This document shows, in pieces, positions 33,360 through 42,986 of a stretch of DNA of 42,986 nt (position 1 is the stretch's first letter; each line of letters begins with the position of its first letter). The notes beneath the pieces are model-generated. The model did no database searches, was not told the DNA's origin, and was given only the letters and a program-made list of their open reading frames with translations. The stretch is from Candidatus Hadarchaeota archaeon (GTDB taxonomy: Archaea; CAYQAE01; CAYVLA01): the NCBI GenBank assembly GCA_964621445.1, contig CAZUNO010000022.1, positions 4,013 through 46,998 of the forward strand. Reading direction: 5' to 3'. A program made the translations under genes and the position numbers.

Positions 33360-34034
33360 ATGAAATTAGATGAAATTCTTGGTAAATCGGTTCTGAATAC
33401 CTCTGGAGTCGGTCTTGGTGAGGTATCGGACCTTATCATTGATAGTCGTAGTGGTGAGGTTACCTCCCTGAAGATCGAGCAGGCCTCAGAGGAGAGTTCC
33501 ACCGGTTTCCTTCCGACCGACCTCCTGAAAATTGAAAATGGAGATGTGGTATTGAAGGGGGAGACGGGGGTTGCCGAGTCACCCGAGGAAGGAGATTACG
33601 TCTATGGTGCCGGTCTCATCAAGGGGGAAGTCTTCGTAAAGCCCACCTGGCGAATAGGCCTCCTGGCGGATTTCGATATAGACGTTGATGATTGGGAGCT
33701 AACGAAGCTAACCATCGACGTTCATCCGGAATATGCTATTGACACCGACCTCCACGAGAAGCTAATGCCCACGGGGTATCCCCCGGTATTCCAGATGGAG
33801 GTTGACAGTGCCTGGGCCCAGTTCCATATCTCCAAGGAGCCCCCGGAGAAGAGCTCGCATACGGTTCTTGATATCATGGGGCAGGATCTTGAGGTCTCCA
33901 TCGCCAAGCACCTGGAAAGGGAGGGATTCCAGGAGGGCAAGACCAGGGCCGACCAGTCATTTGATGAGTCCTACCAGCAGAAAATGATCGATGCATTGCG
34001 TGATGCCATCAGCGAGGCATACCAATCAAGCTAA
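33360..34034 (+). CDS. PRC-barrel domain protein (probably tandem barrels)
   Basis: LDEILGKSVLNTSGVGLGEVSDLIIDSRSGEV and a second repeat IGLLADFDIDVDDWELTKL. Confidence 0.75.
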   Translation: MKLDEILGKSVLNTSGVGLGEVSDLIIDSRSGEVTSLKIEQASEESSTGFLPTDLLKIENGDVVLKGETGVAESPEEGDYVYGAGLIKGEVFVKPTWRIGLLADFDIDVDDWELTKLTIDVHPEYAIDTDLHEKLMPTGYPPVFQMEVDSAWAQFHISKEPPEKSSHTVLDIMGQDLEVSIAKHLEREGFQEGKTRADQSFDESYQQKMIDALRDAISEAYQSS

Positions 34035-34054
34035 ACCCGAATTGGCGAGAATCC

Positions 34055-34337
34055 TTAGGGGTTCATCGATCCCGTTGGGTCATTTCTGATAAGATGTGCC
34101 AGGATGCCAGTAGGGAAAAGGATGGCCCACAATAGTAGAAGGTCAAGAAATAGGGCTGAATAGTTCAGAGTTACTCCCTTATCATCAGTAACCAGCCAGC
34201 TCAGGGGGCCAGCCACGACCGGTGCGGAGTCCCTCCGGATTGTCACGCCTGCCAAGATTTCGAGAGATCATGAAAATGCCAAGTGTTATAGCAATTGCCG
34301 AAATTAAGGCAATTAAAGCGATCCCTCTTCGATTCAT
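34055..34337 (-). pseudogene. Small two-TM membrane protein gene with a +1 frameshift in a G5/C5 run
   Basis: ATG 34337 frame gives MNRRGIALIALISAIAITLGIF...RGWP; removing one base of ggggg (34204-34208) continues LSWLVTDDKGVTLNYSALFLDLLLLWAILF... to the stop at 34055. Confidence 0.7.
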
Positions 34338-34645
34338 GGAAGGGTGATGGAGCTACTTCAATATCAAACTATGGTTAATGGGTATGAAAGGTGCTCCAGG
34401 TCGGGGAGCTTGCTACTCCTCACACCTCTTAAAAAATCCGGTGGATAGTACGTTCCCCCTGAGAATGTAGATGTCACATCCTTTGCATGTGTAAATCCTT
34501 TAACTGTTCATGATAGTAGATCGGCGAGCTGAGGGTAACCTACTCCTGAGACATAAGGTTATCTGTTAAAGGGCTACGGGCAATGTTGGGGGATTGTTTG
34601 GGGAAATGACAACGCAGGATAATCGAGAAAATCAATAAAAAGACA

Positions 34646-34674
34646 TTGACGGGAGACAGGTAAAGCGATATCCT
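34646..34674 (+). promoter_or_regulatory. Bacterial sigma70-type promoter TTGACG-N17-TATCCT
   Basis: Exact 17-nt spacing, A-rich UP-like tract upstream and GGAG RBS at 34690-34693 before ATG 34704. Confidence 0.6.
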
Positions 34675-34703
34675 AGATTATGACTTATTGGAGAATAATT
34701 ATT

Positions 34704-35288
34704 ATGAAAAATAAATTTAATAAAAATATTTTCACATTTAGAAAGCTATTAAGGGATATTGCTTTTTTTACTGTTCATATACCACAGATTATTGGAGCAT
34801 TTAGAGACAAAGAAATCGATGAAGCTTTCACGGAAAAAATCATGTTCGTAACAACCGCCGTGAATGGCTGTGTCTATTGCGCCTGGTTCCATGCAAGAAG
34901 AGCAGTGGCAAGCGGTATGAGCGAGGAAGAGGTTAAGGACCTGCTTGATCTTCAATTTCAGGCACAGGCATCCGATTACGAGATAATGGCTTTACTGTAT
35001 GCCCAACATTACGCAGAAACAAATAGAGAACCAGACCCTGAGGTGACGGAAAAATTCAACGAATATTACGGAGAGAAGACGGCAAATCACATATTCATGC
35101 TTATACGCATGATATACTTCGGTAATCTGCTGGGCAATACGTGGGATGCCATAATAAGCAGGTTCGAAGGGAATCCGGTGGAAAATAGCAGCGTGATATT
35201 TGAGTTCTTCTTCTTTTCAGCTACTTTCTTGTTCATGGCCCCAACTATGTTTCAAATGAAAGAAAGGAAGGAATTACCAGTAGTTTAG
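34704..35288 (+). CDS. Carboxymuconolactone decarboxylase/AhpD family protein with C-terminal TM helix
   Basis: EKIMFVTTAVNGCVYCAWFH (CxxC...H), ALLYAQHYAE; visibly AT-rich relative to the host. Confidence 0.88.
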   Translation: MKNKFNKNIFTFRKLLRDIAFFTVHIPQIIGAFRDKEIDEAFTEKIMFVTTAVNGCVYCAWFHARRAVASGMSEEEVKDLLDLQFQAQASDYEIMALLYAQHYAETNREPDPEVTEKFNEYYGEKTANHIFMLIRMIYFGNLLGNTWDAIISRFEGNPVENSSVIFEFFFFSATFLFMAPTMFQMKERKELPVV

Positions 35289-35363
35289 CACCAGGAAAGA
35301 ACCAATGACCTCTGATTTTTGAGGGTATTGGAGGTTTGCACTACAAATCATATATGAAGTTTA

Positions 35364-35858
35364 TCAGATCGATCTTTGACTTCTAAGCTGGGTGGCGTAC
35401 CTTCTCCGAGCGAGTAAGAGTCCAGCTATGAACAGTGGGGGATAGATAAGGGCCCTAAGATCATATGGAGGGTACGGGAATGCATAGCCGGAGAGGGCGT
35501 CGATCAACAGTCTGGGCCAGAAAGCTAGCTCGATAACGACTGGCATGAGCCAGGTCAACCAATCTATGCCGCCGATGGTTCTATATGCGTGCACTAAGGC
35601 GACCACAGCCAGAAAGGGGCCAGTATACCATAGGTAGAAACAAGCAAGAAAGAAGACCATAGCTCCACCGGAGAAGACATATGGAGAAACACGGACATGG
35701 AAAAGCTCGCTGCGATGCCAAAGGTAGAATGATGCCAAAAAACCCATCGCAGCTACCCCGGAAAAGATGATGTAGGATTCTTCATGAATACCGAGATACC
35801 AGATATAGAGTGAGGTCAAGGAACACAGAATGGCCGCAACCATCCACATATTTTGCAT
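35364..35858 (-). CDS. Polytopic membrane protein with internally repeated TM helices
   Basis: SLYIWY / IIFSG..AMGFLASFYLWH / YVFSGGAMVFFLACFYLWY repeats. Confidence 0.7.
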   Translation of the reverse strand: MQNMWMVAAILCSLTSLYIWYLGIHEESYIIFSGVAAMGFLASFYLWHRSELFHVRVSPYVFSGGAMVFFLACFYLWYTGPFLAVVALVHAYRTIGGIDWLTWLMPVVIELAFWPRLLIDALSGYAFPYPPYDLRALIYPPLFIAGLLLARRRYATQLRSQRSI

Positions 35859-36138
35859 ACTGTATCCCGCTGGTCATTAGGAACGCTAGTAGGATGATAA
35901 ATTTGAGCACACTCCCCCGCCGAGTTCGGACATGAGGCTCAGATCACCATCACATATCATAACTTTAAAGTATCAAGAATGAAAGCCCTGTTCTCTGTCC
36001 TAATAGGGATTGTAACTAGTAAGAATTATTGTATTTTGGTTTCGTTCACTTTTCATGATTTGAAGTCCGCGTAAGTCATCTTCACCGTCTACCTGCATGC
36101 TCGAGTTGGTTAATAAGAGCTTCGAACCTGAGGTGGCA

Positions 36139-36160
36139 AGCCCCGGGCGAGATTCGAACC
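36139..36160 (-). other. tRNA 3'-end fragment (T-loop to discriminator; Thr-like), candidate att site
   Basis: Minus strand GG-TTCGAAT-CTCGC-CCGGGGC-T. A GGC-U 3' end is typical of archaeal tRNA-Thr/Cys; no matching 5' half upstream. Confidence 0.65.
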
Positions 36161-36235
36161 TCAAGTAGAAAAGCACCGGATAGAGCGCCCTGAATTTGCA
36201 TCCAATAAGCCCGTACCGGAGGTTGGGGAAGCCTA

Positions 36236-36522: not shown

Positions 36523-36546
36523 TAAGAGGGAAGTATTGTGGTGGAT

Positions 36547-37008
36547 ATGACGAAGATAGTAGTCATAGTAGCTGTTCTTGCAGCAATCATGGCAACAGCC
36601 ATCATTGCCTTCTATGTGGGCAGACCAGAACTGCCAGAGATCAACCTGGTGCACCTCTATTTCAGCCACGCAAACCAGACCTACACCCAAGGCCAAACCA
36701 TATCCTACTGGGCGAGTTACGCCCTTCGATTCAGAGGGACATCGGTGAAATTCAGCACGGAAATCATCGTGAAAGACGAGAGCGGAAAAGAAGTCTACAG
36801 AGACCCGGTTGTGAGGAAGTGCTTGTCTGTCACCCCTGTACCTTCTACGCCGCGGAACCATGTCTGGGAGCGTACAGGCACGATCAGGAGTGGAACATTC
36901 ACGCTGCAGGAGCCCGGGGAATACGAGGCCTCGATCACTGCACGAGCCGGCGAAAGCTGCGACAAAGTGTTAGACACGTTGAGGATTGTCGCGAATCCAA
37001 TTAGGTGA
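36547..37008 (+). CDS. Membrane-anchored/secreted protein with Ig-like C-terminal region
   Basis: KIVVIVAVLAAIMATAIIAFYV N-terminal helix; FTLQEPGEYEASITA. Confidence 0.72.
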   Translation: MTKIVVIVAVLAAIMATAIIAFYVGRPELPEINLVHLYFSHANQTYTQGQTISYWASYALRFRGTSVKFSTEIIVKDESGKEVYRDPVVRKCLSVTPVPSTPRNHVWERTGTIRSGTFTLQEPGEYEASITARAGESCDKVLDTLRIVANPIR

Positions 37009-37064
37009 CTACTGGAAAGAGCGCCCGAGAAGCCTGAAGAGGTAGAGGACTGGTAGTGCGGGTA

Positions 37065-37115
37065 GCTTCCCTACTAGCTCGGAGAGGTCGGGGGGTTCAA
37101 CCCCGCCGGGGAGCA
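37065..37115 (+). pseudogene. Degenerate tRNA-like element lacking the anticodon arm
   Basis: GCTTCCC pairs with GGGGAGC (7 bp, one G-U) plus A discriminator; between them TAGCTC-GGAGAG-GTC and GGGGG-TTCAACC-CCGCC T-arm. Confidence 0.5.
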
Positions 37116-37162
37116 TCGGGAGTTCCGGTAGGAATAAAATGGAAGACGAAAAGATAAGCATA

Positions 37163-37184
37163 AACCCCAACCCCAACCCCAACC
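37163..37184 (+). repeat. Hexamer tandem repeat (AACCCC) x3.7
   Basis: aaccccaaccccaaccccaacc read directly. Confidence 0.9.
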
Positions 37185-37409
37185 GACGAAGAATAGAAGC
37201 CTTCTTCTGCCTGACACAAGATCTCCGCGGAGTATCTTCTCTGGATCGCCGGAGGTCCGGGGGGAAGCATTACCCACGCGGGTATTGTTTCCTTTTTCCT
37301 CGCCCTCCCACCGTGCTATGGTGCCAGACATAGCCCGTATTCTGCCCTTAGCCGCTTCACTCTTCCGGTTCATCTCGTACCGGCAGCTGCCTCGCCGCAA
37401 AAGACTGGG

Positions 37410-37574
37410 CTACCGGAGATCTGGCTCAGGCTGCTTCCTCGCCTGGTAATGGGCGATGAGGCTCTTTATGGCGGCGTCGAAGCTCTCCTTCTCCATCTCA
37501 TGCTTGACGTGGCGCAGCTCCCGGTGGGTGTCGAGGTGGATCCGTATCATCTTGGTTCTGGTCCCGCCCCCCAT
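37410..37574 (-). CDS. Small RHH/antitoxin-like DNA-binding protein (54 aa)
   Basis: TKMIRIHLDTHRELRHVKHEMEKESFDAAIKSLI resembles the archaeal T.I.I....H..L..K....S.D..I..LI beta-helix-helix pattern. Confidence 0.65.
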   Translation of the reverse strand: MGGGTRTKMIRIHLDTHRELRHVKHEMEKESFDAAIKSLIAHYQARKQPEPDLR

Positions 37575-37593
37575 GGTATCCCTCTTCACCGCT

Positions 37594-37797
37594 TTACCGC
37601 TCCCCCAGGCCTGCCACAGGCCCGGCGTTCCTGTTTTTGAGCATCCGGTCGAGCTGCTGGCGGAGAACGAGCAGCTTGATCGCTGCGGACACCGTTTTCT
37701 TTCTCTCCAAGAGGTCCAGGGCCTGCCGCACCTCATCCCGCACGGCCTCGACCACGTCCTCTATGCTTTGCTCTCCTTTCTTGCTTGTGTTGTCCAC
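37594..37797 (-). CDS. Small helical hypothetical protein (~67 aa)
   Basis: GTG start at 37797 behind GGAGGTTGGGAGA; amphipathic helices; 19 nt from the next gene. Confidence 0.55.
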   Translation of the reverse strand: MDNTSKKGEQSIEDVVEAVRDEVRQALDLLERKKTVSAAIKLLVLRQQLDRMLKNRNAGPVAGLGER

Positions 37798-37835
37798 TCT
37801 CCCAACCTCCGAGTGCATTTACGGGTTAGAGGTCT

Positions 37836-38010
37836 GAGAGAGCCTAGGGCCGCACTCGAGGCATGCGGCCAACATGCCTCTACCGTACCCTTTGGCCCTG
37901 TTCCCAACGTCGGGCAGGGGCCGGGCAGTGGGCGGCCCTTGAAAAATGGCTCTCTCGCCCCACTCGGATGAACAGGCAACGCCTCTTAAGGGTTGCCCTG
38001 TGTTGAGTGG
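37836..38010. ncRNA. Candidate structured RNA or ssDNA element (multibranch fold plus long hairpin)
   Basis: GAGAGAGCC/GGCTCTCTC (37836-44/37948-56), AGGGCCGC/GCGGCCCT (37846-53/37932-39), GAGGCATG/CATGCCTC (37858-65/37873-80), GGCCCTG../..CAGGGGCC, then hairpin 37960-38010. Confidence 0.55.
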
Positions 38011-38069
38011 ACGTGTGGAATGTGGGGGGTGTCGCGGTTCTCGCGGATACATGAGGCCGAGGCGTCAAG

Positions 38070-38194
38070 ACGGATTCTAACTCACTAACTCATTGGCAAG
38101 ACGGGGTGCAGAATACCCTGAGTCGCCGGAAACTAACTCGTTAACTCATTGGCTCAATGGGGGGGTAGACCGGCAACTAACTCACTAACTCATC
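38070..38194. repeat. Three ~25-bp direct repeats, each containing a doubled CTAACTCA octamer (iteron-like)
   Basis: acggattctaactcactaactcatt (38070), ccggaaactaactcgttaactcatt (38126), ccggcaactaactcactaactcatc (38170); periods 56 and 44 bp. Confidence 0.9.
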
Positions 38195-38349
38195 GAGTCT
38201 TGAGGGGTATGGCTCCGGTGATTCATCTCGTGGAGCGCGGCCCGGATATCTTTGAGATCCCCGTTCATGGTGGCCTGGGTACGCTTCAACTTGGTCGCTG
38301 CGTGGACCAGGGCACCGACCTTGGCGTCGACCTCTGCGAGGTTAGCCAT
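38185..38349 (-). CDS. Small coiled-coil-like protein (54 aa), below the ORF-track cutoff
   Basis: MANLAEVDAKVGALVHAATKLKRTQATMNGDLKDIRAALHEMNHRSHTPQDSMS*; strong RBS AGGTGAGGTGGAGA; stop lies inside repeat 3. Confidence 0.6.
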   Translation of the reverse strand: MANLAEVDAKVGALVHAATKLKRTQATMNGDLKDIRAALHEMNHRSHTPQDSMS

Positions 38350-38528
38350 TTCTCCACCTCACCTGGTCAGAAGACACCGGGGCCGAACGACCCGGGCGTG
38401 TGGACACCCTCCTGTGTCGGGGGCTCCGCCTGGGATCTATCTCAGTCTCGGTGGCAGAAGTGCCTGTCTTTCGGCGGGTCTTGACATTGCGGATAATTCG
38501 GAGGGGTGAGGCGTGCCTTGCTGTGTCT

Positions 38529-39524
38529 CTAGGGGTTGGCTGTCTGTGTTATTGTTTCTAGCAAACGTTCTGTATCGGTTTCTGCGGTGTGGACCAAATG
38601 GTTATCTACGGCTATCTCATCGGTCCCTATCCAGGTTCTTCTGCTTTTCACTGATCTGCCTAGTACGTCGGCGATTCGAGCTAGTGTTTTCTCCATGGTT
38701 CTTTCTCTGTCGGTGTTAAGCATATATTTGGTTGTATTTGCTGTTGCCAGGGCATGAAGGTTCTGGGAAACCTCGTCTATCGTTGATGTGGTTTGTCTTT
38801 CAGTTGAGGCTAGGATGTTTAGTAGGGTTGCTGCTTGATCCAGGTGGGCTTGGAGTTCCGCTGCCAGTCTGGAACGGTCCTCTGGGGTTACCGTGGGCCC
38901 GAGATGATTGAGGGTTCTCGCGGTTTGGGAAGCCTGAAGAAGAGTAGCTCTGGTATCGTTGACTATGCGCATCCAGATGAGTACTTCTCTAGACTGTTCG
39001 ACATGCCACAGCGCGTATCCGGCTTCTCCGATAATCATGAGAGCGACTAGAGATATGAAGAGGTTGTTTCGTTTTCTTTTCGAGAAACTGTAGAGGCCCC
39101 ATATACACAGAGCGAGATAGACCAGGGCAAGTAGGGGGCTTGACATACCGGCGATGACTAGAAGCGCAGTAGCCAGGGTGAAGAAGAGCACGAGCTTTGT
39201 CCCGTAGCTCACCTTCTCAAACCTACCCTCCACCGGGCGCATAAGGGTCTGTGCGAGGCGGTACTCGTGGAGTCTGGACTCTATCATCCCCGTGGAGTGC
39301 TCGAGGTAGTTCAGAGCGTTGCTCACTGACTTGTTGTCAGAGTCAATTCTGTCAGCTATTGTGGCCGGGGATAGATACTCGGGATAGGTCTTCTCCAGAA
39401 GATCTAGCATATCCTTCCTATCCTTAAGCGAGAACACCCTTACAACGCTTGGGTCCAAGGAGAGCAGTAACCGGGCAACAGTCGGCCTATCTTCCCCAAG
39501 AGTGAATACTTCTTTTCTACTCAT
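38529..39524 (-). CDS. Membrane-bound winged-helix protein (wHTH + TM helices + helical C-domain)
   Basis: RKDMLDLL...LSPATIADRIDSDNKSVSNALNYLEHSTGMIE...EYRL wHTH pattern, about 3 hydrophobic segments, then heptad-like helices; start trimmed to ATG 39524. Confidence 0.72.
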   Translation of the reverse strand: MSRKEVFTLGEDRPTVARLLLSLDPSVVRVFSLKDRKDMLDLLEKTYPEYLSPATIADRIDSDNKSVSNALNYLEHSTGMIESRLHEYRLAQTLMRPVEGRFEKVSYGTKLVLFFTLATALLVIAGMSSPLLALVYLALCIWGLYSFSKRKRNNLFISLVALMIIGEAGYALWHVEQSREVLIWMRIVNDTRATLLQASQTARTLNHLGPTVTPEDRSRLAAELQAHLDQAATLLNILASTERQTTSTIDEVSQNLHALATANTTKYMLNTDRERTMEKTLARIADVLGRSVKSRRTWIGTDEIAVDNHLVHTAETDTERLLETITQTANP

Positions 39525-40967: not shown

Positions 40968-41187
40968 ATCTAAACACCTCCACCAACCCAGGCAATAAAC
41001 AGATGTTTCAATTACATCAATAAGATATGCAATAAGCATGTATATTAACTTTTCCGTCCTGAATTTTTCTGAAAATTACACTACCAAACCCCATCCCCCA
41101 AATCACATCCCCTCTGTTTCGTCAGGCCTCTGATTTCTTGCCCTTTAACGTGGGTTCGACCTCTCAATTCGGAACAGTACGAAATGT

Positions 41188-41253
41188 GAACTCGCTAAAC
41201 ACGCGGGAAGAAAAACAGTGAAGGCTGAAGACATCAAACTCGCAGTACGCTAA
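41188..41253 (+). pseudogene. 3' fragment of an archaeal histone (HMf-type) gene
   Basis: Translates ELAKHAGRKTVKAEDIKLAVR*; in-frame stop at 41146-41148 and no start codon upstream, so helices 1-2 are missing. Confidence 0.88.
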
Positions 41254-41992
41254 CAACCCCACAACCAGAACCCTGGCTCTCCACCGGTGATTGAAGAGAA
41301 CCGTCAAAGCCAAAACAACCCGAGGAAAAGAGGTGCCTACGTTATCCACCACGGTAGGGTGCCGAGTTGAGTATATTGCCTGGTTCTTGGAGACTAGGGT
41401 CGGGTAGGCATACAGCCCGGTATACTAGACCAGTTGAGGTATTTCCATAACAGGAATCTCGGTATTATGTGTTTTTCGTCGTTGTGGATAACACGTCTGA
41501 TACTATTTGTATTATAGGAGAAACGTTTGGGTAACACCCGATTTCTACAAAACCACTATATTTTCGTAACAATGGGGATATTCATGGGATCTCAAGGAAC
41601 TCGCGGTCGGCTTCAAAATGGATCAGGAAGGGGAAGATAGGGGATTCTCCATCGGGGTTCTAAACCTCTCTACCTGTTCGCCTTGAGATCTCTTATCCGA
41701 TCTGCAGGGATAACACAAAGATCACGCTCGGGTCTCCCTGCCTTGTTAGGTGCGGAGGTAACCGCGCCGAGGTGCTTTGTGATGTCAGGAGATCGTGGGC
41801 TTCACCTTAATCTTCATGGAACGATAACAGGGAGAATCGAGATAGGGAAGTCTCAGAGATCTTGGGATCTGATTTCACCGCGAGCGACATCGATATAAGA
41901 TCTATAAGAGTCCGTCTAGTTCAAGCCACTGTGCTTACGAGCCTTCTCTGGGGATCTCAGCGCAGGCTCCTTCTGAACGGACTGGTATCTGA

Positions 41993-42986
41993 ATGAATCG
42001 TGTATTATGGCTAATGATCCTCGTCTTGATCCTCCCAATCGGGATGGGTTCAGAGCCTCGAGTCGATCCGGAGACCCACGTTATTCGTCTGCTCCACCTG
42101 GGTAAGGCATGGTATCGAGGGAGTGCACCCGGACCGATCTTTCTTCAAGACCCTAAGATCGACTGGTTGCCAGTTCCAGCTTGTCAGGCTCACGGTGATG
42201 ACATGAAAGCTCTGCGCATCTTCCTTCCAAGAACCAGGGAGGCCCTTTTCCAGGAGTTTGACGTAGTACTCATAGACGGCATGGATGCGTATGACCTTAA
42301 ACCAGAGTTCCAGCATTGGTTGGTTGAGGGTATGAAAACATTGGGCATTAACTTCGTCATGGCAGATGATTCATCCTCTTTTGCGACAAGTGGAAGCCAC
42401 ACATCGTGGTACGATGTGCTTATAGGCGATATTCTTCCCGTTGACGATAAACCACTTCAAGGCTCTCCTTATGACGAACAGGAATCCTTTCACATCGTGC
42501 CGCAGATTCCGGGCCATGAATTCACACGAAGCATTCCCTGGGAGGATGTATGGATGTACGCTGCTAATCGTCCTTGGCCGAAAGTGGGGTCCACCATCGT
42601 GACGAGGATGTCTGGGGAACACTCCGTCAACAAGAACAAGGTTCAGATGGTCTACTGGGATCTGCTCCCGGCTGGAGGGAGGTCGGTAGCATGGATACAT
42701 CGTTGGGTGGGTTCAGGCGAGTTCTGGAGATGGAAGTACCATCCCGATGTTACGGCACACGTGATATACTTCACGGCAAAGGTTCCAATCCCCGAAGATA
42801 TATCGCTGCCAACCCCGCAGGAGATCAGGTCGCTCCGGTGGAAATCGACCCCCGTGATAAGAACTCTCAGCCATCAGACCCATCCCGAAGCTGTATTTCC
42901 CGCAACCCAGACCCGGCCTCGAGCACTGAGCCCGGGGCTGATCGTCAGCTCCAGCTCTCCGCGAACAGTTATCCCAAGTCTTACCT
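41993..42986 (+). CDS. Secreted hypothetical protein, partial (runs off window); possible class I glutamine-amidotransferase-like fold
   Basis: Not in the ORF track. MNRVLWLMILVLILPIGMGSEPRVDPET... signal peptide; FDVVLID, SWYDVLIGDILPV; open to the window end. Confidence 0.7.
   Translation, partial: MNRVLWLMILVLILPIGMGSEPRVDPETHVIRLLHLGKAWYRGSAPGPIFLQDPKIDWLPVPACQAHGDDMKALRIFLPRTREALFQEFDVVLIDGMDAYDLKPEFQHWLVEGMKTLGINFVMADDSSSFATSGSHTSWYDVLIGDILPVDDKPLQGSPYDEQESFHIVPQIPGHEFTRSIPWEDVWMYAANRPWPKVGSTIVTRMSGEHSVNKNKVQMVYWDLLPAGGRSVAWIHRWVGSGEFWRWKYHPDVTAHVIYFTAKVPIPEDISLPTPQEIRSLRWKSTPVIRTLSHQTHPEAVFPATQTRPRALSPGLIVSSSSPRTVIPSLT

Follow-up and report, generated by a model that had tools for sequence, protein, structure and literature searches.

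We describe a folded sequence block in front of a 67-aa gene on the chromosome of an archaeon of the Hadarchaeota. The block is kept beside the same gene in a second genus, suggesting that it is an undescribed RNA control element on this gene. We put at roughly 45% the probability that it is a not yet described cis-acting 5′ leader RNA through which translation of a family of predicted helical-hairpin proteins is gated. The window (the whole 42,986-nt stretch of DNA that was analyzed) carries the block within a cluster in which one old unit is combined with several additions private to this genome. The sequence-only reading had taken this cluster for the control core of a mobile element and named an RNA-based regulatory module as a secondary option. 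Because the folded block is kept in the second genus, we favor an RNA control element over a mobile-element core, and the secondary option agrees with what the evidence favors for the structured block.

Architecture and setting of the locus

The features of the locus are collected in Table 1. Three small ORFs exist on the minus strand, as had been noticed from the sequence, and all three look coding. GC at the three codon positions is 0.70/0.34/0.81 for the 67-aa ORF, 0.61/0.37/0.85 for the RHH-like ORF and 0.63/0.41/0.76 for the 54-aa orphan ORF; the codon-model scores of the first two are 0.208 and 0.157. The mean score of 1,098 chunks of real genes is 0.164, and at most 0.14% of 4,439 spurious ORFs of 50–80 aa reach the scores of the three. 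ORFs within the structured block show no codon periodicity (scores −0.05 to −0.15), and the upstream frame of the 67-aa ORF is interrupted by stops in both the window and the second genome, so the block is non-coding.

Table 1. Features of the locus, numbered from the first nucleotide of the window
Feature	Position	Strand	Basis or remark
Non-coding stretch, ~400 nt	37009–37409	.	3′ of RHH-like ORF; no coding signal
RHH-like/VapB-like ORF, 54 aa	37410–37574	-	19 nt after 67-aa ORF
67-aa ORF, GTG start (74 aa from upstream ATG)	37594–37797	-	coding score
Expression platform	37797–37835	-	helix predicted in window and G003
Three-way-junction RNA domain, conserved leader core	37836–37956	-	MFE fold
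P1	37948–37956/37836–37844	-	MFE fold
P2	37932–37939/37846–37853	-	MFE fold
P3	37918–37927/37886–37898, apical hairpin 37903–37914	-	MFE fold
P4 hairpin	37858–37880	-	MFE fold
Hairpin A, GC-rich stem-loop 5′ of junction domain	37957–38012	-	belongs to 178-nt fold
Direct repeat R3	38071–38106	-	family D1
Direct repeat R2	38127–38162	-	family D1
Direct repeat R1	38171–38206	-	overlaps stop codon of 54-aa ORF
54-aa orphan ORF	38185–38349	-	coding score 0.127
Spacer between winged-helix membrane protein gene and 54-aa ORF	38350–38528	-	no special structure
Winged-helix and membrane protein, 340 aa	38529–39551	-	chromosomal neighbor; other candidate binder of repeats

The cluster lies in chromosomal DNA and combines two units that differ in age. 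Its GC content is 0.54–0.59, and the window has the contents of an ordinary archaeal chromosome, including GatD/GatE, glycoside hydrolases and glycogen genes. The 340-aa protein matches PF22979 (HTH_69) with E 1.5e-5 and 25.2 bits, under the cut-off of 27. It has a homolog in a genome of the sister genus (G002; 59% over residues 10–100), where it lies beside the same BNR-repeat gene in synteny; as a query against genome contigs it gave no match. The neighbors at 35.3–37.0 kb are orphans, one of which has an 81%-identical pseudogene copy elsewhere in the second genome. Within the non-coding stretch, the ORF at 37074–37400 has codon-position GC values of 0.51/0.61/0.60, a coding score of 0.03 and no Pfam match, and TRF finds an (AACCCC)3.7 microsatellite at 37163–37184. 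A search of sequencing runs listed no RNA run with the locus and three DNA runs of one study, two of which carry the module on short, low-depth contigs that are identical to the window across it.

Rep, Orc1/Cdc6, integrase, ParA and tRNA genes are all absent from the window, whose 39 distinct ORFs were covered by the domain scan for initiators. Searches of 72,556 plasmid and 50,697 phage records with the module DNA and with two of the small proteins found no match, pattern and protein scans of IMG/VR found no relative of the module, and 0/6 proteins were matched by PHROGs and 0/6 by PADLOC. The chromosomal context, together with the absence of Rep or integrase and of plasmid or phage relatives, lends no support to the proposed mobile-element core, and the plasmid, phage and IMG/VR searches identify no known virus or plasmid replicon of which the cluster would be a piece.

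Fold of the structured block

The nearly full pairing that had been noticed over about 175 nt withstands comparison with shuffled sequence. On the gene strand, the 178 nt at 37835–38012 fold at −92.0 kcal/mol compared to a shuffle mean of −68.7 (z −5.54, with 0/200 shuffles as good), and a 252-nt frame around the block gives a z of −3.10. The opposite strand of the same 178 nt reaches z −5.12; both strands fold equally well in the window. The structure of Hairpin A is absent from the second genome, where 11 nt are deleted and the sequence folds differently, and Hairpin A is genome-specific or non-functional.

Other structural elements of the sequence-only reading did not hold up as well. A folded leader of about 100 nt before the 54-aa orphan ORF does not exceed chance (38350–38528, z −0.12, 84/200 shuffles; 38350–38485, z −0.28, 71/200), and the repeat region also folds at chance level (z −0.28). 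The inverted pair GTCAAGAC (38064)/GTCTTGAC (38478) does exist, but it stands at chance level: 23/100 shuffles of the window give at least two matches, and the pair is weaker than 21 other inverted pairs listed in the window.

Rfam 15 gave 0 matches in the window at the gathering threshold, and the best sub-threshold matches in 37000–38700 have E values of 1.6–4. A scan for sigma-70 promoters and terminators was uninformative in this archaeon. Neither a TATA/BRE promoter nor a transcription start could be placed. The AT-rich junction AUUUUUCA/AUAUUUAA is TATA-like, but we reason that it lies too near P3 to drive a transcript that contains P3.

Conservation of the proposed leader in a second genus

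A covariance model built from the window alone returned a single match, in a genome of a second genus (G003, contig C30; 35.2 bits, E 4.6e-7, or 2.2e-5 per genome). The matching leader lies at 1276–1434 on the same strand and stops at the start codon of a homolog of the 67-aa ORF, as window positions 37797–37956 do at that of the 67-aa ORF itself. The model found nothing more elsewhere: matches are confined to 2/5 genomes of the class and 2/41 relatives, with one leader copy in each of the two genomes. Structure adds little to this detection, with 35.2 bits compared to 32.5 bits from sequence only (a gain of 2.7 bits).

The junction architecture is predicted independently in G003. There the gene strand folds with z −3.27 (0/200) and the opposite strand with z −0.99 (28/200), a strand asymmetry of the kind that G-U pairs in RNA give, suggesting an RNA rather than a DNA palindrome. 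When the two sequences are aligned by fitting to the structure of the model itself, 9/49 pairs show compensatory changes and pairing is kept in 94.7% of cells, a count that 0/500 shuffles equal and for which slid controls give 0–1. RNAalifold alone finds 8/38 compensatory pairs and picks the helix that sequesters the Shine–Dalgarno (SD) sequence and start codon. In an unfitted MAFFT alignment, P4 shows two compensatory and three one-sided changes. As two full DNA sequences are compared, all these covariation counts are weak. P1 has no covariation support, as 7/9 of its pairs are invariant and one is broken in G003; it is not formed in the G003 MFE structure, and RNAalifold puts the start-codon helix in its place.

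Nucleotide identity between the two leaders is 57% (MAFFT) to 66% (fitted), and the 67-aa ORF is 49% identical in nucleotides and 34% in amino acids; on these figures, conservation of the leader equals or exceeds that of the protein. Among 40 shuffled controls (mean 46%, SD 4.9), the highest value is the same 57% that MAFFT gives for the leaders, so sequence conservation of the leader is patchy. The structured block and adjoining gene are the exception in a neighborhood that otherwise has no detectable similarity between the two genomes, which bears out the suggestion that the block is better preserved than its surroundings. The expected linkage of ORFs, repeats and structure survives in part: the structured block and the 67-aa ORF recur together at the G003 locus, the one homologous locus with DNA sequence, but the repeats, the 54-aa orphan ORF and the RHH-like ORF are missing there, and the module is not conserved as a whole. 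The repeats, the 54-aa ORF and this RHH-like gene are private to this genome, the last being a paralog of a chromosomal family.

A metagenomic protein call (P0006) suggests a third copy of the leader. Its 25-aa N-terminal over-extension matches the stop-containing upstream translation of the window in 15/26 columns, in which LSQTS corresponds to the invariant block and HSEV to the SD. Metagenomic contigs, the longest of 1.2–3.6 kb, encode P0006 and the proteins P0003, P0004 and P0005 (52 aa). Leader pattern scans of genome contigs returned the G003 contig each time and one Clostridia locus (L092), which we assume to be a chance match; the same pattern gave 0 matches among viral contigs.

The 67-aa protein

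According to its predicted structure, the 67-aa ORF product is a helical-hairpin protein of a rare, unnamed family. AF2, run on four sequences, places helices at residues 12–31 and 35–57 with a mean pLDDT of 76.7. A HMMER search of 1.84 billion representatives found two relatives (E 1.3e-5 and 1.6e-4), and G003 has two copies of the family, of which the second paralog lacks the leader. The protein has no match in Pfam, NCBIfam, PHROGs or PADLOC, and a word-indexed search of 5.8 billion proteins with the 74-aa form returned the window's own protein only. Foldseek found nothing at E ≤0.001, and its hits were generic helical hairpins (best E 4.8). Genome contigs scanned with the 67-aa alignment gave a single candidate, in an Anaerolineae locus (L087), which was rejected as a family member, its match being the N-terminal motif of a 542-aa protein.

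A proposed translational switch

The SD sequence GGAGGU (37804–37810) sits 7 nt upstream of the 67-aa ORF and is predicted to pair with ACCUCU (37828–37834). The adjoining GGGAGAG (37797–37803), the last base of which is the G of the GTG start codon, could form a helix with the 3′ strand of P1. The window and G003 are identical over the block CTCTCTCAGACCTCT. The placing of the SD in an alternative helix is a computational prediction in both genomes. The MFE structure of G003 is the long sequestering helix, with the SD at a probability of 0.001 of being unpaired and the start codon buried too; in the window, the corresponding probability is 0.32, and the alternative fold lies 4.4 kcal/mol above the MFE. 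SD-like motifs precede 19.0% of the ORFs of the genome compared to 6.9% in a control window (n = 2,223).

We hypothesize that the conserved unit consists of a structured leader of about 160 nt (37797–37956, minus strand) followed by the 67-aa helical-hairpin gene, and that the leader would be transcribed together with this gene and act in cis on its translation. A multi-helix junction (P2, P3 with its apical hairpin, and P4) would lead into the invariant pyrimidine-rich block CUCUCUCAGACCUCU, which could pair with the SD core GGAGG and the purine run at the start codon. In the default fold, ribosome-binding site and start codon would be buried. A signal on the junction would then move the CUCUCUC strand into the alternative helix P1, and the start region would open; candidate signals are a small ligand, the encoded protein itself and temperature. 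In this genome only, the RHH-like gene 19 nt further 3′ would be co-translated from the leader mRNA.

If true, this would be a compact and testable case of translational control in an SD-using archaeon, with a leader masking the ribosome-binding site of a small protein, and would give a first handle on an unnamed small-protein family. To our knowledge, very few cis-regulatory RNAs are known in archaea, and a literature search on small RNAs and riboswitches in Hadarchaeota found nothing on record.

The RHH-like ORF, the repeats and the 54-aa orphan ORF

The RHH-like ORF is probably co-transcribed with the 67-aa ORF. It belongs to a chromosomal family, with two paralogs on contig C68 (50% and 43% identity) and homologs in the genomes G001 and G003; the 67-aa locus in G003 has no RHH partner. 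Sequence comparison weakly supports the RHH identity of this 54-aa protein. The similarity to PF02697 (VapB_antitox) is weak and in register in hhalign against four true PF02697 proteins of the genome (probability 30%, E 5.5e-4), but the scores of 19.2 and 17.1 bits miss the cut-off of 27.9, and the AF2 monomer is a single helix (residues 14–47, pLDDT 77.5) with no beta-alpha-alpha arrangement. The C68 paralogs match PF23807 (E 0.0016) and PF24434 (E 0.0018), neither reaching the cut-off.

Used as a profile against the PDB, the RHH alignment returned noise only (glycogenin, E 0.25). The word-indexed search of 5.8 billion proteins returned the window's own protein, and genome contigs gave one weak match, in an Acetobacteraceae MAG, over residues 35–53. 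Downstream of the ORF, there is no Pfam match to a PIN (VapC) gene and no trace of a decayed form of the ~150-aa partner of the paralogs (best E 0.06). The protein shows no relationship to the CcdA-like antitoxin encoded close to the copy in G003 (E 0.08).

The three repeats of the sequence-only reading are real, are 36 nt long and are found nowhere else in the genome. They span 38071–38206, are 100, 78 and 67% identical to the reference copy and are spaced by 56 and 44 nt. At up to three mismatches, their core ATGAGTTARYGAGTTAG (gene strand) occurs three times in the 3,211,127-base genome, always here, and each core is a pair of abutting 8-mers in direct orientation. The motif was not found in G001–G003; in G004 it has three two-mismatch matches compared to one for a reversed-pattern control. 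In metagenomes, a two-copy repeat pattern hit 62 loci, none of which has the arrangement of the window on inspection; most are 8-nt microsatellites of the (GAGTTAGY)n type, and a few are short-period arrays (L025/L070, L061, L075, L083). Viral contigs contain 13 single-copy matches to the repeat 17-mer, about the chance number by a rough estimate. AT-rich segments of the 387-nt spacer are few and comprise the repeats and sites at 38054, 37949 and 37821.

The 54-aa orphan ORF, preceded by the SD-like GGTGAGGTGGAG, has no relative among 5.8 billion proteins, in its own genome, or among plasmids and phages. In the ESM Atlas, the best scores of the small ORFs are 0.88, for the 54-aa orphan, and 0.84, both under the lead level. 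The two orphan ORFs have no similarity to each other.

The private unit comprises the three repeats, each with two tandem 8-bp boxes, and the 54-aa orphan gene. Some RHH repressors, such as MetJ and omega, read tandem short boxes in direct orientation, and by analogy the repeats may be operators. On the simplest view, they would be binding sites for a DNA-binding protein, for which the RHH-like protein would be the leading candidate, followed by the winged-helix membrane protein. The repeats lie 270–400 nt upstream of the start codon of the operon, and binding there would put a second layer of control on transcription of the leader operon. In the full version of this scheme, which we regard as unlikely, the junction would be the sensor of a new archaeal riboswitch or protein-responsive class, confined to a barely sampled phylum and gating a new family of helical-hairpin proteins; in this genome, a duplicated RHH-type repressor, made from the same mRNA, would bind the three upstream tandem-box operators and close a feedback loop, yielding a two-layer circuit.

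Alternative explanations

The block could instead be a stand-alone sRNA gene, with a trans-acting or protein-binding product, or the RNA partner of the 67-aa protein in an RNA–protein pair, with no translational switch. We consider this somewhat unlikely. The fold is strong and compact in the window and strand-specific in G003, there is one copy per genome, and a T5 run lies inside the element; P2–P4 are separable from the SD helix, and the second G003 paralog lives without the element. Against these points stand the lack of an Rfam match up to E 10, an equally short distance between the end of the element and the start codon in both genomes, and the complementarity of the most conserved block to the SD and start region; because of the latter two, we favor action in cis. 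That the locus has no dedicated function, and consists of inherited GC-rich palindromic DNA, a local repeat duplication and young lineage-specific ORFs, seems improbable. Only two sequences are compared, their MAFFT identity is within the shuffle range, structure adds little score, the window folds equally well on both strands, and 2/3 ORFs are without close relatives. The rest of the neighborhood is dissimilar between the two genomes, yet the block is kept beside the same gene; its stems persist though the sequence differs, G003 shows a strand bias, and the third lineage keeps the upstream block.

An addiction module is very unlikely. In a type II version the RHH-like protein would be the antitoxin and the 67-aa or the 54-aa protein the toxin; in a type III-like version the repeats would give an RNA antitoxin. 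The best Pfam match of the RHH-like protein is indeed the VapB antitoxin family, the succession of 36-nt direct repeats, hairpins and an ORF resembles ToxIN, and the G003 homolog of the 67-aa ORF lies about 0.5 kb from a CcdA-like/PIN pair. However, the two genes of that pair run on the opposite strand and their antitoxin is unrelated, and the G003 homolog has no RHH partner; in the window, the RHH-like protein misses the PF02697 cut-off, there is neither a PIN or other toxin gene next to it nor a decayed one downstream, and a small ORF before the RHH gene is the reverse of the usual order. For type III, the repeats are interspersed (44, 56) rather than tandem, 67–78% alike and unfolded, the downstream proteins have 67 and 54 aa, and neither a ToxN-like protein nor a PADLOC match (0/6) was found. 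Least probable to us, and largely refuted by the test proposed with it, is the reading of an integrated archaeal plasmid or virus with its replication, copy-number or partition core here, the repeats acting as iterons, the block as an origin hairpin or single-strand origin and the RHH-like protein as a CopG-like regulator. The three repeats, the strongly folding block and the small RHH-like gene do lie within 1.1 kb, the GC3 of the three ORFs (0.76–0.85) is in the top 1–10% for the genome, and the orphan neighbors, one of them with a pseudogene copy in G003, would fit as well. The missing replication and integration genes, the failed plasmid, phage, IMG/VR and PHROGs searches, a spacer with only short AT-rich 8-mers and no long AT-rich stretch, and an upstream gene that is syntenic chromosome all weigh against such a core; the homologous locus retains structure and ORF only, and its strand-specific fold argues for RNA, not DNA. 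Dense repeats, stems and tiny ORFs resembled a mobile-element core, yet the region is chromosomal.

Comparison with known systems

Iteron-type plasmid origins with a CopG-like regulator and type III ToxIN loci resemble this locus in having hairpins and small ORFs next to direct repeats of about 36 nt. Here, however, there is no Rep or ToxN, the repeats are not tandem, the setting is chromosomal, and no plasmid, phage or defence-library match was found. The RHH-like protein resembles archaeal PF02697 VapB antitoxins in size and, weakly and in register, over a strand-helix-ESF-helix stretch; it differs from them in scoring 17–19 bits compared to 27.9 and in having no PIN partner, and its RHH-like paralogs pair with an unnamed protein of about 141–150 aa. 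MetJ reads 8-bp met boxes and omega reads 7-bp heptads. The arrangement here is similar, with two abutting direct 8-bp boxes per repeat, three sites and an RHH-like gene nearby, but the sites are far from the start codon of that gene and absent in relatives, and the RHH fold is putative.

Some mRNA leaders, of the ribosomal-protein-leader type, are bound by their own small protein product. As in such autoregulatory leaders, the gene directly after the structured leader encodes a very small, basic/acidic helical protein, and leader and gene are kept together; the 67-aa protein, unlike theirs, is not known to bind RNA, and Foldseek relates it to generic helical hairpins only. From the known translational riboswitches, riboregulators and RNA thermometers that mask the SD, the leader proposed here differs in having no Rfam match (E ≤10) and no known ligand, in its archaeal host from a five-genome phylum, in its small number of instances (2–3), and in its proposed target, an uncharacterized 67-aa protein. 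It resembles them in its predicted layout: a 5′ leader on the gene strand in which a junction is followed by a helix that would bury the SD and start codon, and in which the CUCUCUC strand has two mutually exclusive partners.

Setting and coding signal

The window (contig C22, 4013-46998) is ordinary archaeal chromosome, since its genes include GatD/GatE, many glycoside hydrolases and glycogen metabolism. The source genome bin is 3.2 Mb in 89 contigs (96% complete), the phylum comprises only five genomes in the taxonomy used, and related DNA is present in microbial-mat metagenome runs. No tRNA or Rfam family was matched across the whole window.

Order of features in the module and its surroundings
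Feature	Coordinates	Strand
Winged-helix plus membrane protein, 340 aa	39551-38529	minus
Spacer, 179 nt, between 340-aa gene and first 54-aa ORF		minus
First 54-aa ORF	38349-38185	minus
Three direct repeats (R1, R2, R3), 36 nt each	38206-38171, 38162-38127, 38106-38071	minus
GC-rich structured block	38012-37835	minus
67-aa ORF, GTG start; 19 nt before RHH-like ORF	37797-37594	minus
RHH-like ORF, 54 aa	37574-37410	minus
Stretch without coding signal, about 400 nt, downstream of RHH-like ORF		

The three small ORFs proposed in the sequence-only reading are present, and all score like real genes. A codon model trained on 1,098 long ORFs of the source genome gave 0.127 for the first 54-aa ORF, 0.208 for the 67-aa ORF and 0.157 for the RHH-like ORF (real-chunk mean 0.164); among the 4,439 spurious ORFs, no more than 0.14% reach these scores. 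Third-position GC is marked in all three (0.76-0.85), and a purine-rich Shine-Dalgarno (SD)-like motif lies 7-13 nt 5′ of each; such motifs are enriched before ORFs genome-wide (19.0% vs 6.9% in the control). ORFs within the structured block all lack codon periodicity. Searches for relatives of the first 54-aa ORF found none in its own genome, protein collections, the ESM Atlas, plasmids or phages. An (AACCCC)3.7 microsatellite (37163-37184) lies within the non-coding stretch downstream of the RHH-like ORF.

A conserved putative leader upstream of the 67-aa ORF

The 178-nt structured block is real (z -5.54; 0/200 shuffles fold as well), and in the window its opposite strand folds equally well (z -5.12). 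The folded leader claimed before the first 54-aa ORF was not borne out, the spacer there being at chance level (z -0.12 and -0.28).

In a second genus (genome G003, contig C30), the sequence directly upstream of a 67-aa ORF homolog resembles this block. A covariance model built from the window sequence alone found exactly one match in G003, at 35.2 bits, spanning the full model length and ending at the start codon, and no other match in the five genomes of the class or 41 relatives; a sequence-only model finds the same copy almost equally well (32.5 bits vs 35.2). MAFFT puts leader identity at 57%, and the model-fitted alignment puts it at 66% (shuffled controls: mean 46%, maximum 57%); the 67-aa ORFs are 49% identical in coding nucleotides and 34% in protein. 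Because leader identity is modest relative to the shuffled controls, conservation is patchy, and most of it falls in GGGAACAGGG, the loop of stem P4, CTCTCTCAGACCTCT and TCGGAGG.

Folded alone, the G003 leader adopts the same architecture from different stem sequences: P3 is long and bears a small apical hairpin, and P4 forms a hairpin whose loop is 5-7 nt. It folds on the gene strand only (z -3.27 vs -0.99 for the complement), which is a signature of G-U pairs and therefore of RNA. Between the window and G003 (n = 2, alignment fitted to the structure), 94.7% of cells are paired and 9/49 pairs are compensatory, counts exceeding 500/500 shuffles and all slid controls; RNAalifold on this same fitted two-sequence alignment gives 8/38. 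P4 alone, in the unfitted MAFFT alignment, carries two compensatory and three one-sided changes.

A putative third instance of the leader is implied at P0006, a metagenome protein related to the 67-aa ORF, because the 25 extra N-terminal residues of its over-extended call agree in 15/26 columns with the window's upstream translation, which contains stops; the invariant block and the SD are among the matched parts. The G003 locus is without the repeats, the first 54-aa ORF, hairpin A (37957-38012 in the window) and the RHH-like gene. Its neighbors are a truncated gene upstream and, downstream on the other strand, a zinc-ribbon ORF and a CcdA-like/PIN pair.

The encoded small proteins

A word-indexed protein search with the 67-aa ORF returned no relatives. 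HMMER over 1.84 billion representatives recovered two small ones (E 1.3e-5 and 1.6e-4), whose clusters add two further members, and a profile of these relatives identified two copies in G003. The second G003 paralog (L090, contig C32, 1396-1743) is longer, with a 115-aa frame (profile E 3.2e-6), and the covariance model finds no leader there. AlphaFold on four sequences predicts a helical hairpin, confidently in its core, and its structural neighbors were not informative.

No close relative of the RHH-like ORF turned up among 5.8 billion proteins; two paralogs lie on contig C68 and homologs occur in genomes G001 and G003. The RHH label itself is weak: Pfam scores of the ORF and its paralogs fall below cut-off, hhalign against true PF02697 members of the source genome gives a probability of 30%, and AlphaFold models the monomer as one helix. 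The paralogs and homologs are followed by the gene for a conserved protein of 141-150 aa that has no name and lies beside a transaldolase-like gene, and no remnant of this partner lies downstream of the RHH-like ORF in the window. The pair (L002, on C68 of the source genome, 1440-2425; L005 and L007 in G001; L006 in G003) adjoins the transaldolase-like gene in two genera and, in the source genome, on C68. The larger protein carries the motif RAxRAKVWH...HRATL. Neither Pfam nor NCBIfam has a family for the pair, which may be a two-gene unit, perhaps toxin-antitoxin-like, that is as yet undescribed. On C68, the second RHH paralog is placed divergently across an AT-rich promoter region.

Repeats and inverted pair

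The three direct repeats are real and not fortuitous: allowing ≤3 mismatches, their 17-nt core, two 8-mers in tandem, occurs three times genome-wide, always in the module. Folding of the repeat region is not above chance (z -0.28). The motif was not found in genomes G001-G003, and G004 has three two-mismatch matches vs one for the reversed control. MetJ-type RHH repressors read tandem 8-bp boxes in direct orientation, and for this reason the top-ranked reading, at about one chance in four, is that the repeats would serve the RHH-like protein as operators; alternatively, they may be bound by the winged-helix membrane protein encoded upstream.

Widespread microsatellites, (GAGTTAGT)n and (GAGTTAGC)n, are built from the same 8-mer pair; they occur at 62 metagenome loci (L025-L086), many at contig ends. 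L083 is a 58-nt-period array whose unit forms a hairpin; L025 and L070 are AT-rich arrays of 52-nt period with the same boxes.

The reported 8-bp inverted pair is present but without statistical weight. Within 38064-38485, the heptamer TCAAGAC/GTCTTGA occurs at 38478-38485, inside R1 and right after R3, and a 6-nt version precedes the R3 core. By a rough estimate this recurrence is not significant after word-choice correction; the heptamer could be a second binding motif.

Genomic context and the mobile-element reading

The module had been taken for the control core of an archaeal mobile element. The high GC3 of the three small ORFs, the orphan neighbor genes and an 81%-identical pseudogene of one neighbor (36538-37008) at a non-syntenic G003 site are in keeping with such an origin, and because of them the 35-38.5-kb stretch may be a variable region. 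However, an initiator, integrase, partition ATPase and tRNA are all missing from the window; searches of plasmid and phage collections with the module DNA and two of its small proteins gave no match, PHROGs and PADLOC matched 0/6 proteins, and IMG/VR scans returned nothing related. Further, the 340-aa gene and its BNR-repeat neighbor are syntenic in G002, whose contig ends inside the gene. The stretch is not a recognizable replicon core, and the mobile-element reading is not supported.

The neighbor at 36538-37008 (plus strand) encodes a 156-aa membrane-anchored orphan. Its G003 copy (contig C36; L024, 9813-10234) is 81.4% nucleotide-identical over 381 nt, with an internal TGA and a wholly different neighborhood. 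As the rest of 10 kb of the window has no other match to 18 kb of that contig, the comparison suggests that the gene recently moved. Two public runs yield contigs with a joint that jumps back by 843, from 36212 to 35370, and carries 37 added letters. They also contain a second haplotype at 35401-35545, distinguished by 19 differences. For the 35370-36212 stretch, this points to a strain-level rearrangement or diverged duplicate around a 164-aa membrane ORF. GC dips to 0.43-0.47 at 34001-36000 and 41001-42000 (0.53-0.60 elsewhere), flanking the orphan-gene stretch.

A possible translational switch

The sequence-only reading is confirmed in part: the repeats, structured block and three ORFs stand, and its suggestion of an RNA-based regulatory module is supported for the block. 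The finding reduces to a rare, undescribed and conserved putative leader RNA in front of a small-protein family that has no name, together with repeats private to the source genome.

In both genomes, ACCUCU is predicted to pair with the SD GGAGG(U). CUCUCUC, 5′ of it, has two predicted partners: GAGAGAG at the 5′ end of the junction (P1) or the start-codon GGGAGAG/GGGGAGA. In G003 the MFE structure is the long sequestering helix (SD unpaired probability 0.001). For the window, the MFE structure is the P1 form; the sequestered form lies 4.4 kcal/mol above it and the SD is 0.32 unpaired. The RNAalifold consensus favors the sequestered form, and P1 has no covariation support between window and G003 (n = 2). 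No promoter could be placed; the AT-rich strand of the junction resembles a TATA box but is too near P3. Confidence in a switch mechanism is limited because the sequences are few and the work is computational. We infer that the layout is that of a translational switch, which could be flipped by a ligand of the junction, by the small protein itself, or by temperature.
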